This document shows positions 8,113-12,308 of a stretch of DNA of 29,384 nt, one piece after another. Every line of letters begins with the position of its first letter. Position 1 is the first letter of the stretch. This stretch comes from Candidatus Omnitrophota bacterium (lineage in GTDB: Bacteria > Omnitrophota > Gorgyraeia > Velamenicoccales > Velamenicoccaceae): the NCBI GenBank assembly GCA_038068755.1, contig JBBTLH010000095.1:1-29384 (forward strand), in the 5' to 3' direction. Position numbers and translations under genes: made by a program. The notes below the pieces were generated by a model. That model ran no database searches. It saw only the letters and a list, made by a program, of their open reading frames with translations, and was not told the DNA's origin.

Positions 8113-8570
8113 AAAATCACCTGCTTTGCCCGGTTGACCTTTTCTAAAGGTATCTTGATCGTTTTGTTTTCAGTTTTGATTGAAATTGCGTCTGCTCCGG
8201 CAGACTCAACATTCCCTAAATGCTCTATTTTACCATCGTAGGGTTCTTTTAAAAACACCCTCACCTTGCGGCCTATGACGCGCTTGAAATCAGGCAAGAT
8301 CACTAATGGCCGGTCTGTGCCTGGCGAGGAAACTTCCAGAATGTATTTTGCTGATATAGAAACGTTTTCCTCCGCGATATTGCCCAACTCCGCATTGAAA
8401 TGCCCGCACTCATCTAAAGTAATGCCGCCTTCTGCCCTGTCAGCCAAGACTTCCAGGATTAAGGCGCCTTCGTTATTCCTGTAAAACCTTATATCCACCA
8501 GGATATAACCGCACCTTTCTAAATGAGCGCTAAAAAGCGAACGCAGTTTTAAAAGGCAATCTTCAAACAT
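8109..8570 (-). CDS. rimP: Ribosome maturation factor RimP
   Basis: GGITLDEC, YILEVSSPGTDRPL...DFKRVIG; AGGAG SD; upstream of nusA. Confidence 0.95.
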   Translation of the reverse strand: MFEDCLLKLRSLFSAHLERCGYILVDIRFYRNNEGALILEVLADRAEGGITLDECGHFNAELGNIAEENVSISAKYILEVSSPGTDRPLVILPDFKRVIGRKVRVFLKEPYDGKIEHLGNVESAGADAISIKTENKTIKIPLEKVNRAKQVIL

Positions 8571-9765
8571 CGGTGTCTCCTGTCAATCTTAATTCAGCCT
8601 GCGCCTGGCCCTGTGTCTTGACGAGCGCATAGATGTCTTTCAAGGCATATTCAGGACGGTTCTTTTCTACTTCCGAAATAGCCACTAAACGCCTGGTACC
8701 GTCGGGAAGCCTATCCACGGCAATAACGATATCAATGGCTGAGATGATCTGGCGCCTGATCAATTCGCCTGAGACCTTAGAACCACCCATCATAGCCATA
8801 GTCTCAAGACGCAAGAGCGCGTCCAACGCAGAATTGGCGTGCATGGTTGTCATGGAACCGATTTGCCCTATATTCATGCACTGAAGCATATCCAGCGTTT
8901 CTTCGCCCCGCACCTCGCCGATAATGACCCTGTCAGGCCTCATATGCAGGGCATTGCGCACAAGGTCGCGTATCGTTATCTCACCCTTGCCTTCTATGGT
9001 CTGCGGCCGCGTCTCAAGCGCGACGCAATGCTTACCCGTCATGCGCAACTCAAGCGTATCCTCAATAGTGATCACCCGTTCCATATCGGGGATAAAAGAC
9101 GCCAATATATTGAGTACGGTCGTCTTCCCGGAACCGGGACCGCCCGCGATGACAATGTTGGAGCGATTCTTAACGCACGCCTTCAAAAAATGAGCGACCT
9201 TCTCGTCAATGGTATGACGTTCGATCAGATCGTGTATCTCTAAAACTTTATGGTGCGCCTTGCGTATGGTCAGGATAGGGCCAAAAGGAGCCACAGGCCT
9301 GCGCACAACGTTCAAGCGCGAACCGTCAGGGAGGCGCGCATCAATATAAGGTTCAAACTCCGTTACGCGCCTTCCCGAAGGCGAAAGTATCCTTTCTATA
9401 TAGAAAAACAGCTGCTCCTCATCTTCAAACACAACGTCCGTCTTTTGCATCTTACCTTCTCTCTCAATATACACTTCTTTCGGGCCGTTGACCATGATCT
9501 CCCAGACAGTCGAGTCTGAGATAAGCCGGCCGATGGGCCCCAGCCCGAATATCTCGTTGACTACCTCTTCAATTATAAAACGCCGCAGGCCGTCATCAAT
9601 GGCCCCGTCCATCTTCGCGCGGACGACAGAATCCAAGGCAGCCTCTATCTGACGCCGGACAGTGCCGTCGTCAACCTCATATTCCAGGCCGGTCTTTTTG
9701 ACCTTCACCAAAACTTTAGACCTGACCTCTTCTTTGATCTGTTGTATCTTTTCTAATCTATCCAT
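8563..9765 (-). CDS. cpaF: CpaF/TadA-family pilus assembly ATPase, copy 1 (His-box variant, short C-terminus)
   Basis: WEIMVNGP, DARLPDGSRLN, Walker A GGPGSGKTT, Asp box TIEDTLEL, LHMRPDRVIIGEVRG, MNIGQIGSMTTMHANS. Confidence 0.92.
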   Translation of the reverse strand: MDRLEKIQQIKEEVRSKVLVKVKKTGLEYEVDDGTVRRQIEAALDSVVRAKMDGAIDDGLRRFIIEEVVNEIFGLGPIGRLISDSTVWEIMVNGPKEVYIEREGKMQKTDVVFEDEEQLFFYIERILSPSGRRVTEFEPYIDARLPDGSRLNVVRRPVAPFGPILTIRKAHHKVLEIHDLIERHTIDEKVAHFLKACVKNRSNIVIAGGPGSGKTTVLNILASFIPDMERVITIEDTLELRMTGKHCVALETRPQTIEGKGEITIRDLVRNALHMRPDRVIIGEVRGEETLDMLQCMNIGQIGSMTTMHANSALDALLRLETMAMMGGSKVSGELIRRQIISAIDIVIAVDRLPDGTRRLVAISEVEKNRPEYALKDIYALVKTQGQAQAELRLTGDTDV

Positions 9766-11027
9766 TAATTCGCCCCCTGCTCTTTCAGGTATCTACGGAC
9801 TTCTTCTAAAACTTGTCCAGCGTCGATATCCTTTGATCCTTGAAACCTTCTTTCTCTAAGCTCAAGTTTTTTTTCTTGCGTCCATTTATTGCCTAAGATA
9901 ATACGCAAAGGAAAGCCCAGGAGATCAGCGTCTTTGAACTTGACTCCCGCGCGCTCATCCCTGTCATCTAAAAGGACCTCTATGCCGGCTTCTTCTAAAG
10001 TTTTATGAATGTCGTTGCCCTTGTTTAACAACTCTTTATCCGAAATATTAACCGGCACGACCACAACCTGATAAGGAGCCACTTGGGCCGGCCATATGAT
10101 ACCGTCCTTATCGTGGTTCTGCTCAATGATAGCGGATATCAAACGGCTCACGCCTATGCCGTAACAACCCATCTGCACGGTCTGTTGTTTGCCTCCTTCG
10201 TCTAAAAACTTAACGCCCAAAGCCTTGGAATATTTCTCTCCGAGCTGAAAGATGTGCCCTATCTCAAGCGTATTAATCTTCTCCATATCTTGCTTACAGT
10301 GCGGACAATCCTCTATCTGCGCCTCTTGTGAACTCTTGACCTCGTTGCATATCTTACACTTGAAAATGACATCTTCCCCGCTCTCGGCAGGCACCATAAA
10401 TTCATGGGAGACATCGCCGCCGATAATACCGGAATCCGCTTTGACAGAAACAAAATCCAGTCCGCAGCGCTTGAATATCTTTTCATAGGCGAGGCGCATC
10501 TTTTCATAGATCTCGGTTAAACCCTTTGTATCGCGGTCAAAACTATAAGCGTCCTTCATAATGAATTCGCAGCTGCGTACTATGCCGAACCGCGGCCTGA
10601 CCTCATCTCTGAACTTCGTCTGTATCTGATATAAGACAAAAGGCAGATCCCTGTAAGACTTGACAAAATTAGCCGCCAGTTCGGTCACCACCTCTTCGTG
10701 AGTGGGGCCGAGGCACAATTTGCGGCCCCGCCGATCCGTGAAACGGATCATCGTCTCACCTAAAAGTTCGTCGCGCCCGGTCTTCTGCCATAATTCAATA
10801 GGCTGCAAGCTCGGCAATAAGAGCTCCTGAGCGCCGGCGCTATTCATCTCGTTGCGGATAATATTTTCTATTTTTGAAAGGGCCTTATAACCCAGCGGCA
10901 GATACGAATAAACACCGGCTACCAGCATGCGCACCATGTTGGCGCGCAGCATAAGCCTGTGACTTATGCTCTCAGCGCTCTCCGGCGCCTCTTTTAATGT
11001 TGAAATAAACGACTTTGTCCAAAGCAT
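9765..11027 (-). CDS. proS: Proline--tRNA ligase, bacterial type, short form without the editing (INS) domain
   Basis: LGPTHEE, QIQTKFRDEVRPRFG, EFIMKDAYSF, IGGDVSHEF, EIGHIFQLG, MGCYGIGVSR, DADLLGFP; 420 aa. Confidence 0.97.
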   Translation of the reverse strand: MLWTKSFISTLKEAPESAESISHRLMLRANMVRMLVAGVYSYLPLGYKALSKIENIIRNEMNSAGAQELLLPSLQPIELWQKTGRDELLGETMIRFTDRRGRKLCLGPTHEEVVTELAANFVKSYRDLPFVLYQIQTKFRDEVRPRFGIVRSCEFIMKDAYSFDRDTKGLTEIYEKMRLAYEKIFKRCGLDFVSVKADSGIIGGDVSHEFMVPAESGEDVIFKCKICNEVKSSQEAQIEDCPHCKQDMEKINTLEIGHIFQLGEKYSKALGVKFLDEGGKQQTVQMGCYGIGVSRLISAIIEQNHDKDGIIWPAQVAPYQVVVVPVNISDKELLNKGNDIHKTLEEAGIEVLLDDRDERAGVKFKDADLLGFPLRIILGNKWTQEKKLELRERRFQGSKDIDAGQVLEEVRRYLKEQGAN

Positions 11028-11042
11028 TCTTAGACATTCCCT

Positions 11043-12308
11043 CTACTCTGCCCGAAATATATCCTCGGGCAAGTCAATGCCGCGCAGCCTAAAAGTAGGA
11101 TAAAAAAGCGGCACGACCCCTCCTATTCTCCATTGGCCTACCACACTCTTATGTTCTTCGGAAACGCCTTTGATCTCATAGGAAAACAGATCTCTTAAAA
11201 CGACGTCGTCATTTTCCATGCCGCCGACTTCAGTTATGTGCGTCATCTTGCGCTTGCCGTCGCTCAACTGCTCCTGCATCACGATGATGTCAACGGCATT
11301 AGCGATCTGGCGCCTTATAGCCCAAAGCGGTATTGCGGTATTGGACGTGATGATCATGGTCTCTATGCGGGATATGACATCGCGTGGCGAGCTCGCGTGC
11401 AAAACAACCAAAGCCCCATCATGGCCGCTTGAAATAGCCTGGAGCATATCCAAGGCCTCGCCCCCTCTGATCTCACCTAAGATGATGCGGTCAGGCCTCA
11501 TGCGCAAAGAATTCTTAAATAAGTCCCTTATCGGCACCTCACCTTTACCTTCAACATTAGCCTGCCTTGTTTCCAAAGGAACGACATGCCTCTGTTTCAG
11601 GCGCAGCTCAGCCGTATCTTCTATGGTGATGATGCGTTCGCTTTCAGCGATATAGCTGGATAAGACGTTTAGCGTAGTCGTCTTGCCTACGCCGGTCGCC
11701 CCGGCAAAGATGATATTAAGCTTTGCCTTAATAGCCGCTATTAAAAACTGGGCCATCTTATCGGTAAGCGTGTCACGTTTTAAAAGATCTTCAATAGCCG
11801 CTATCTCGCGCGAAAACTTCCTTATGGTGATGACCGGCCCCAAAAGAGATATAGGCGGCAGGATGATGTTGACGCGCGAACCGTCCGCCAAGGACGCGTC
11901 CACGTAAGGAGAAGATTCATCCACGCGGCGCTGTGTCGGGGCCAGTATCTTTTCTATCGTCTGCATAAGATGGCGCTGATTATCAAATTTTATATCGGTC
12001 AAGAGCATTATACCGTTCTTCTCCATATAGACGGTGTCAGTGCCATTGACCATTACTTCCGAAACGCTTGCGTCATCAAGCAAAGAGCTTAAAGGCCCGA
12101 AACCAAGCATCTCATCCATGAGTTCGCCGACGATCTTTTCTTTCTCCTCTGTCGTGAGCGTCACCCTGTCAAAAGAAATAACGTGGTCAATGCCCTTGTA
12201 GATGTCTTTTTTAAGCTTTTCCTTATCTACCGGATGCCTGTCTTTTTTCGCAAAAAGATAATCGCCGGAAACGAGATATTGGCGGACTTTCTCTTTTATC
12301 TCACTCAT
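11043..12308 (-). CDS. cpaF: CpaF/TadA-family pilus assembly ATPase, copy 2 (canonical motifs)
   Basis: SEVMVNG, DASLADGSRVN, Walker A GATGVGKTT, TIEDTAEL, LRMRPDRIILGEIRG, His box SGHDGALVVLHASSP, full C-terminus. Confidence 0.93.
   Translation of the reverse strand: MSEIKEKVRQYLVSGDYLFAKKDRHPVDKEKLKKDIYKGIDHVISFDRVTLTTEEKEKIVGELMDEMLGFGPLSSLLDDASVSEVMVNGTDTVYMEKNGIMLLTDIKFDNQRHLMQTIEKILAPTQRRVDESSPYVDASLADGSRVNIILPPISLLGPVITIRKFSREIAAIEDLLKRDTLTDKMAQFLIAAIKAKLNIIFAGATGVGKTTTLNVLSSYIAESERIITIEDTAELRLKQRHVVPLETRQANVEGKGEVPIRDLFKNSLRMRPDRIILGEIRGGEALDMLQAISSGHDGALVVLHASSPRDVISRIETMIITSNTAIPLWAIRRQIANAVDIIVMQEQLSDGKRKMTHITEVGGMENDDVVLRDLFSYEIKGVSEEHKSVVGQWRIGGVVPLFYPTFRLRGIDLPEDIFRAE

Follow-up and report, generated by a model that had tools for sequence, protein, structure and literature searches.

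Tad (type IVc) pili are powered by CpaF/TadA, a single bifunctional motor ATPase, and are thought to run on that one motor. Tad systems are central to contact-dependent predation. Among the Omnitrophota, Candidatus Velamenicoccus archaeovorus is an ultra-small, predatory-type bacterium which has been grown in enrichment culture only. Here, we analysed a stretch of 29,384 nucleotides from a relative of this organism (the window: contig JBBTLH010000095.1 of the Candidatus Omnitrophota assembly GCA_038068755.1, which comprises 977 kb in 102 contigs and is 72.7% complete), in which two genes for CpaF-type ATPases flank proS within a string of translation genes. The ATPase encoded between ispG and proS is referred to as UP and that encoded between proS and rimP as DN; an earlier note on this DNA, made from its letters alone, had called them cpaF2 and cpaF1, respectively. 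Extra copies of this kind have been described in Bdellovibrio bacteriovorus, which carries a TadZA fusion in its main locus, an rcpA2-tadA2 module and an isolated tadA3; predation does not depend on tadA2, which is also expressed differently, and an accessory or unrelated function was proposed for the additional paralogues (bioRxiv 10.64898/2026.07.08.737194). The two genes of the window are the following.

11043..12308, minus strand: UP, CpaF/TadA-family ATPase of 421 aa (Pfam T2SSE, E 2.3e-54)
8563..9765, minus strand: DN, second CpaF/TadA-family ATPase, 400 aa (Pfam T2SSE, E 2.5e-53)

Both genes are real and intact, and their products are offshoots, under strong selection, of the CpaF/TadA branch within the PilT/VirB11-type hexameric ATPases; with regard to anatomy and evolution we consider this secure. 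The Pfam T2SSE scores (184.9 bits for UP and 181.5 for DN, against a cut-off of 24.9) place both among the PilT/VirB11-type secretion ATPases. The best NCBIfam model for both was the TadA-family model TIGR03819, at 283.7 and 293.1 bits, which is below its cut-off of 373.15; the scores for VirB11 (TIGR02788, 203-204 bits, cut-off 249.95) and TrbB (186-188 bits, cut-off 304.55) were also below threshold. The pilT_fam model gave 48-65 bits against a cut-off of 319, so that neither protein qualifies as PilT-type, and no motif resembling the PilT AIRNLIRE was found in either. The closest solved relative of both is Caulobacter CpaF (E 3e-104 for UP and 6e-86 for DN). UP consists of an N1 three-helix bundle, an N2 domain and a C-terminal ATPase domain, and the same CpaF-like layout is present in DN. 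The two proteins are 46% identical over 318 residues, thus they are not recent duplicates, as the earlier note had supposed from their visible divergence, but old paralogues in separate orthogroups.

Purifying selection on UP and DN is strong and comparable to that on proS. The dN/dS values were 0.06-0.09 for UP, 0.07-0.10 for DN, 0.05-0.10 for proS and 0.12-0.13 for ispG, and mean column identity over the same 35 genomes was 62% for UP and 65% for prolyl-tRNA synthetase (ProRS). Both ATPases have an intact Walker A motif, Asp box and Walker B, and UP has an intact His box as well. In Caulobacter CpaF, the arginine fingers are R217 and R223 on the N-domain and R347 across subunits (PMC12019362). 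When these positions were placed in UP and DN by HMMER alignment to CpaF, each copy was found to have lost a different ATP-contacting arginine, UP the N-domain finger and DN the inter-subunit one. The substituted residues, together with a His-box variant of DN, are these.

11892..11894, minus strand: UP Ser139, at the position of CpaF R217, an arginine finger (alignment of orthologues)
8944..8946, minus strand: DN His274, at the position of CpaF R347, the inter-subunit arginine finger (HMMER alignment to CpaF)
8863..8865, minus strand: DN Gln301, in place of the first His of the His box (motif alignment)

The substitutions are properties of whole orthogroups. At the R217 position, the 34 UP rows have Ser (29), Cys (4) or Ala (1), while Arg is present at the R347 position in all 34. 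The 17 DN rows have Arg (15), Gln (1) or Lys (1) at the former position and His at the latter in 17/17. Nine short ATPases related to UP, described below, carry Cys (9/9) and Arg (9/9), respectively. The Tad-locus copies (35 rows) keep all three fingers, with Arg in 35/35 at both R217 and R347. Further public genomes gave the same picture, with Ser at the R217 position of UP in 20/20 and His at the R347 position of DN in 14/14. The first His of the DN His box is Gln301 in the genus of the window and Arg in the other genera of its family, and it is kept in families f7 and f6 (families, genomes, contigs and loci are cited by our own f, G, C and L handles). Owing to a C-terminal truncation, DN of the window's genus is also devoid of the C-terminal motif, which is kept by UP and was linked to retraction in a 2026 preprint on CpaF inversion. 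We also tried to read extension and retraction roles from the positions equivalent to P386/R387, but these did not split cleanly among UP, DN, the short ATPases and the fusion copies, and this approach was abandoned. Since a different ATP-contacting arginine is lost in each, UP and DN are read here as altered ATPase subunits.

The origin of the two copies was assessed in two maximum-likelihood trees of 73 and 101 rows. The UP orthogroup (34 rows) received a support of 96, its inner branching following the families broadly, and the DN orthogroup (17 rows) a support of 78, with long branches and a basal position. The sister of UP (support 99) is the group of nine short ATPases, 354-360 aa in length, which start at N2 and have no N1 three-helix bundle. 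UP and the short group together are sister to the clade of Tad-locus ATPases (support 92), with DN outside. In the approximately unbiased (AU) test, a grouping of DN with UP and the short ATPases was not rejected (p 0.43); given this value and its long basal branches, DN may descend from the lineage of UP. Neither UP nor DN groups with a Tad-locus copy, and thus the comparison proposed in the earlier note sets both apart from ordinary CpaFs. The short ATPases occur in two kinds of places. In three f32 genomes (G167, G177 and G283) the gene stands directly after a TadZ::TadA gene inside the Tad locus, and seven genomes of f7, f24 and f33 have it immediately before a thrS gene, with infC as the next gene (e.g., G096, L074:6531-9957; also L073 and L162-L166). 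With UP before proS and the short form before thrS-infC, CpaF-type genes of Velamenicoccia head two different operons of class-IIa aminoacyl-tRNA synthetases and initiation factors. The short form and UP partly replace each other in f7, f32 and f33, where a genome that has one tends not to have the other.

All long open reading frames (ORFs) of the window lie on the minus strand and, according to Pfam and NCBIfam, follow the order uppS, cdsA, dxr, rseP, ispG, UP, proS, DN, rimP, nusA, infB, trpS and scpA. The neighbours of the ATPase genes are listed here in the direction of transcription.

13457..17292, minus strand: uppS-cdsA-dxr-rseP, upstream part of the gene string (Pfam; order conserved)
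12326..13450, minus strand: ispG, upstream neighbour of UP (Pfam GcpE, E 1.5e-124)
9765..11027, minus strand: proS, prolyl-tRNA synthetase of 420 aa without the INS editing domain (NCBIfam PRK09194, 589 bits; Pfam tRNA-synt_2b and HGTP_anticodon)
8109..8570, minus strand: rimP (Pfam RimP_N and DUF150_C)
4863..8112, minus strand: nusA (6943-8112) and infB (4863-6956), downstream part of the gene string (Pfam; order conserved in all examined relatives)

The order of the genes and their junctions, measured at 17, 15, -1 and -8 nt, are those given by the earlier note. The 17 nt between the ispG stop and the UP ATG contain GGGAG, 15 nt separate the UP stop from the proS ATG, proS and DN meet in TAATG with base 9765 common to both, and DN overlaps rimP by 8 nt (ATGTTTGA), with GGAGA just upstream. 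Base composition is uniform across the region. In a promoter and terminator consensus scan of 4500-17500 the counts did not exceed those of shuffled sequences and none fell at the junctions, and an Rfam scan of the window returned no family at threshold.

The layout is conserved in relatives of the window's organism. Orthologues of DN (64-95% identity) were found in 21/21 genomes of the same family in the Genome Taxonomy Database (GTDB), each with another copy at a distance of about 2.5 kb. By tblastn, the order GH57-uppS-cdsA-dxr-rseP-ispG-UP-proS-DN-rimP-nusA-infB-trpS-scpA was identical in 10/10 loci of the family, including the closed chromosome of Ca. Velamenicoccus archaeovorus LiM (NZ_CP019384; Omnitrophota, class Velamenicoccia). 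In 20 further public loci ispG is followed by UP, and all 19 that reach past UP continue to proS; the full UP-proS-DN triad is present in 13 of these 19, which are related at the level of the same family, and 3 others hold UP and end before DN. At least 16 GTDB families of the class have UP in front of proS, with ispG (or rseP) on its other side; family f6 has kept ispG-UP-rimP, although its proS is now found elsewhere. DN is patchier than UP, being present in all of f1, in three f7 genomes and in two f24 genomes, and relocated behind aroB in f6, and it was found only in genomes which have UP as well. Some members of Velamenicoccia have a plain ispG-proS-rimP order. In a 150-genome sample of the phylum, no ATPase was found beside proS outside this class, and in other phyla the nearest homologues lie in ordinary Tad loci, preceded by TadZ and followed by TadB/TadC. 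The synteny survey suggested in the earlier note thus shows an ancient, conserved and non-chimeric layout. UP settled in its place before proS, next to ispG (or rseP), early in the history of the class; the Velamenicoccus family, and two further families in part, acquired DN as a fixed gene between proS and rimP.

Co-transcription of UP and DN with the dxr-rseP-ispG-...-rimP-nusA-infB string is probable from the anatomy of the junctions. As these are tight or overlapping, and leave no room for promoters or terminators, both ATPases would be made from the translation-operon transcript and their supply would follow the translation apparatus. In two activated-sludge metatranscriptome runs we found contigs 95-99% alike to the LiM locus, one bridging ispG and UP and another UP, proS and DN, so that three junctions are bridged in a close relative; such contigs speak for presence and continuity and do not rank expression or prove a single transcript. 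The co-expression with the translation machinery that had been proposed before is compatible with both lines of evidence. The supplements of PMC12583861 mention the LiM genome and not the UP or DN proteins, and PMC13153191 holds no relevant expression data for LiM.

CpaF is normally encoded in a tad locus. No Pfam match to Tad families was obtained among the scanned ORFs of at least 80 aa in the window, a scan which leaves out small ORFs of flp size; TadB/TadC, TadZ, Flp pilin and RcpA/RcpC are likewise missing beside UP and DN among these ORFs, and beside every orthologue examined. The Tad locus lies elsewhere. In relatives, single-domain TadB and TadC genes are located about 11 kb from the gene of a 720-750-aa ATPase. 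The LiM region encodes RcpC, a secretin with a TonB_C tail, TadZ::TadA (740 aa; a ParA/MinD-type TadZ domain fused to a TadA ATPase), DUF192, pilin-like ORFs, TadB and TadC, in agreement with the Tad locus published for LiM at 12382-29832 (PMC10066038). In the window's own genome, a contig of 6.2 kb (C24) carries TadZ::TadA, 87% identical to that of LiM, DUF192 and the next gene. The contig breaks off where the fusion begins, and the assembly, which is incomplete, yielded neither TadB/C nor RcpC. The core of secretin, fusion and DUF192 is conserved across the class, and in the trees the fusion falls together with canonical CpaFs from Clostridium, from Planctomycetota and from other classes of Omnitrophota. 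We thus conclude that the principal Tad motor of the lineage is the TadZ::TadA fusion and not UP or DN, which, with a Tad locus elsewhere that has its own motor, are supernumerary paralogues. The earlier statement that no other tad gene accompanies them holds for the window but not for the genome.

Several observations concern the same gene families. In the secretin of the LiM Tad locus (L057:9331-10926), the C-terminal TonB_C follows the T2SS-T3SS_pil_N and Secretin domains. One in-frame TGA was flagged inside the TadZ::TadA match of an f52 genome (G185, L184:6155-8314), where the TadZ part (6155-7096) and the TadA part (7106-8314) match separately, so that an unfused pair, a pseudogene or read-through are possible. 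At Tad loci of Planctomycetota and of Anaerolineales-labelled metagenome-assembled genomes (L135-L139), the ATPase ORFs exceed 600 aa and are N-terminally extended, while a TadZ-domain query gave no match there; the distribution of N-terminally extended, possibly TadZ-fused TadA may reach far outside Omnitrophota and Bdellovibrio. A fourth T2SSE ATPase, divergent and 456 aa long (contig C33 of the window's own genome; L060:2601-3971), 35-38% identical to the others and conserved across relatives, is flanked by a SAM methyltransferase and a CHASE4-HAMP-PAS sensor protein.

Taking these results together, we tentatively favour, at somewhat less than an even chance, the reading that UP and DN are altered ATPase subunits, slow or partner-dependent, whose most likely task is to tune or assist type IV filament machines, and not to act as ordinary extension motors. 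Filament machines are suggested because the sister clade of UP resides in a Tad locus, the CpaF architecture is retained, and Bdellovibrio provides a precedent. According to this proposal, both proteins would be supplied constitutively from the translation operon and would act on the Tad machine or on one of several T4a-like systems of predatory-type cells. UP would run without its N-domain finger, and DN without the inter-subunit finger and, in the Velamenicoccus family, also without the first His of the His box. Most genomes of the class sample in which UP is present have the TadZ::TadA fusion too.

A number of points weigh against this proposal. The altered enzymology it presumes is a prediction from the substitutions, and the RNA evidence consists of contigs, which do not establish one common transcript. 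In two genomes of family f52, G204 (four contigs, 95% complete) and G223, UP is in its usual place and no single-domain T2SSF protein (TadB/TadC), RcpC or TadZ::TadA could be detected; their relative G185 has a full Tad locus. Across three genera of f52, UP is 77-80% identical, compared with 69-73% for proS, and its motifs are intact. Conversely, many genomes have a fusion-type Tad locus without UP, e.g., the closed G175. As UP occurs without Tad in f52 and Tad occurs without UP in many genomes, the two are separable both ways. In no genome examined was a platform gene or another partner gene linked to UP or DN. Further candidates for UP without Tad did not hold: in G157 and G267 fragments of Tad loci are present, cut by contig ends, and G187, where TadB/C are present and the fusion was not found, was set aside since its 40 contigs make it too uncertain.

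The strongest rival is that UP, and perhaps DN, left the Tad machine for a constitutive, Tad-independent function, either in export or remodelling or in a task linked to nucleic acids or translation; although less probable than the filament reading, it deserves serious weight, owing to the f52 genomes, the housekeeping-level conservation and the repeated placement in operons of aminoacyl-tRNA synthetases and initiation factors. UP was kept, and highly conserved, in the Tad-less G204 and G223; its conservation equals that of ProRS; the clade-wide loss of an arginine finger indicates a changed mechanism; UP precedes proS...nusA-infB as the short form precedes thrS-infC; and f6 maintains ispG-UP-rimP despite the relocation of proS. 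A constitutive function independent of Tad would explain why these genes are wired into housekeeping operons. On the other hand, the sister short ATPases lie inside the f32 Tad loci, UP-bearing genomes outside f52 carry the fusion Tad locus, all motifs other than the arginines are kept together with the CpaF-like N1 domain, no alternative partner was found, and the absence of Tad is known from two genomes of one family. A complex prediction for UP with ProRS, prompted by the repeated adjacency to aminoacyl-tRNA synthetase genes, scored 0.00, which is evidence neither way. In a more elaborate form, rather unlikely in our estimate, the whole lineage of UP, the short form and DN was freed from Tad and became constitutive in Velamenicoccia within the proS-rimP-nusA-infB and thrS-infC operons, with reduced fingers, possibly mixed hexamers and a non-pilus job; such a job for a CpaF-derived lineage would explain its survival in genomes that lost the Tad locus. 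As to the choice posed in the earlier note, growth-coupled pilus motors or repurposed ATPases, our data bring no decision, but they lean away from ordinary pilus motors.

It is improbable that Tad is a multi-motor system here, in the manner of PilB, PilT and PilU, in which TadZ::TadA extends the pilus and UP, DN and the short ATPases serve as retraction or booster motors. The short ATPases, PilT-like in having no N1, indeed follow TadZ::TadA in f32, UP retains the C-terminal motif connected with retraction, and UP and the short form are partly complementary in their occurrence. Yet the P386/R387-equivalent positions do not separate the groups, the PilT-like motif is missing from both copies, Tad loci with the fusion as their only ATPase are common, and f52 has UP without Tad.

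Slightly less probable still is a mixed hexamer in which UP and DN each provide the arginine finger that the other has lost. The defects are complementary (the R217 equivalent in UP and the R347 equivalent in DN), DN occurs only together with UP, and the genes are neighbours whose translation is probably coupled. However, most families have UP without DN, where UP must work alone, so that the mixed hexamer cannot be a general solution.

Finally, a chimeric assembly, a recent insertion of mobile DNA or decaying pseudogenes would be next to impossible to reconcile with the synteny survey, which ruled them out by finding the same order in dozens of independent assemblies, a closed chromosome included, and with intact UP and DN frames, dN/dS of about 0.1 or lower and uniform composition.

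Other features of the window concern neighbouring genes. Where INS would be, ProRS (9765-11027) has a short, zinc-ribbon-like insert with four nearly invariant cysteines (C224, C227, C241 and C244 in the numbering of a 35-sequence alignment), and both INS-less and full-length ProRS of about 570 aa are present in the phylum. The infB-trpS spacer (4608-4862, 255 nt) folds on the minus strand at -79.6 kcal/mol (z -6.9 versus shuffles) and matches no Rfam family. Trigger factor (27561-28430) has only 289 aa, with Trigger_N and Trigger_C matches and no PPIase domain between them. A 590-aa ORF between serA and purA (22302-24074) gave in Pfam only a weak thioredoxin-like match at its C-terminus.

The LiM Tad locus, TadZ::TadA fusions and the isolated tadA paralogues of Bdellovibrio were already published. 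In the literature we found no paper on CpaF-type genes in proS or thrS operons of Omnitrophota or on their arginine-finger losses, and searches for CpaF together with proS returned unrelated papers only. New are DN as a second copy with a signature of its own, the short sisters linked to thrS, and the finding that UP and Tad can be separated. Beyond the earlier note, there is a full Tad locus elsewhere, each copy has lost a different arginine finger, and UP is kept in genomes without detectable Tad. Across a whole class of ultra-small predatory-type bacteria, one or two additional ATPases of the CpaF type are maintained, under selection at the level of housekeeping genes. Should they act on filament machines, nature has provided finger-deleted variants from which the tuning of motor speed, direction or engagement could be learned; otherwise, they offer a clean example of how a secretion ATPase was recruited for a new constitutive role. 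Under either reading Ser139, His274 and Gln301 are directly testable substitutions.

Compared with known systems, UP and DN have the architecture, Walker A, Asp box and Walker B in common with CpaF of Caulobacter crescentus and TadA of Aggregatibacter. However, the latter are encoded in a Tad locus, whereas the UP and DN genes have no linked TadB/C, TadZ, pilin or secretin; CpaF has three arginine fingers, one of which is lacking in each of UP and DN, with a variant His box in DN as well; and the Tad-locus copies form a clade in the trees from which UP and DN are excluded. TIGR03819, the 'TadA family conjugal transfer-associated ATPase' of an actinobacterial helicase/secretion neighbourhood, is the top model for both, but the scores are below its cut-off and the neighbourhood is different. 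As with PilB, PilT and PilU of type IVa pili, UP, DN and the short ATPases amount to several paralogous hexameric ATPases per cell, and PilT has no N1 domain, as in the short sister clade; UP and DN nevertheless belong to the CpaF branch and not to that of PilT, and the genomes have separate PilT-like genes. Bdellovibrio is alike in being a predator with TadZ::TadA in its main locus and extra, dispersed tadA paralogues, but neither a placement in a translation operon nor a loss of arginine fingers is reported for its tadA copies in that preprint.

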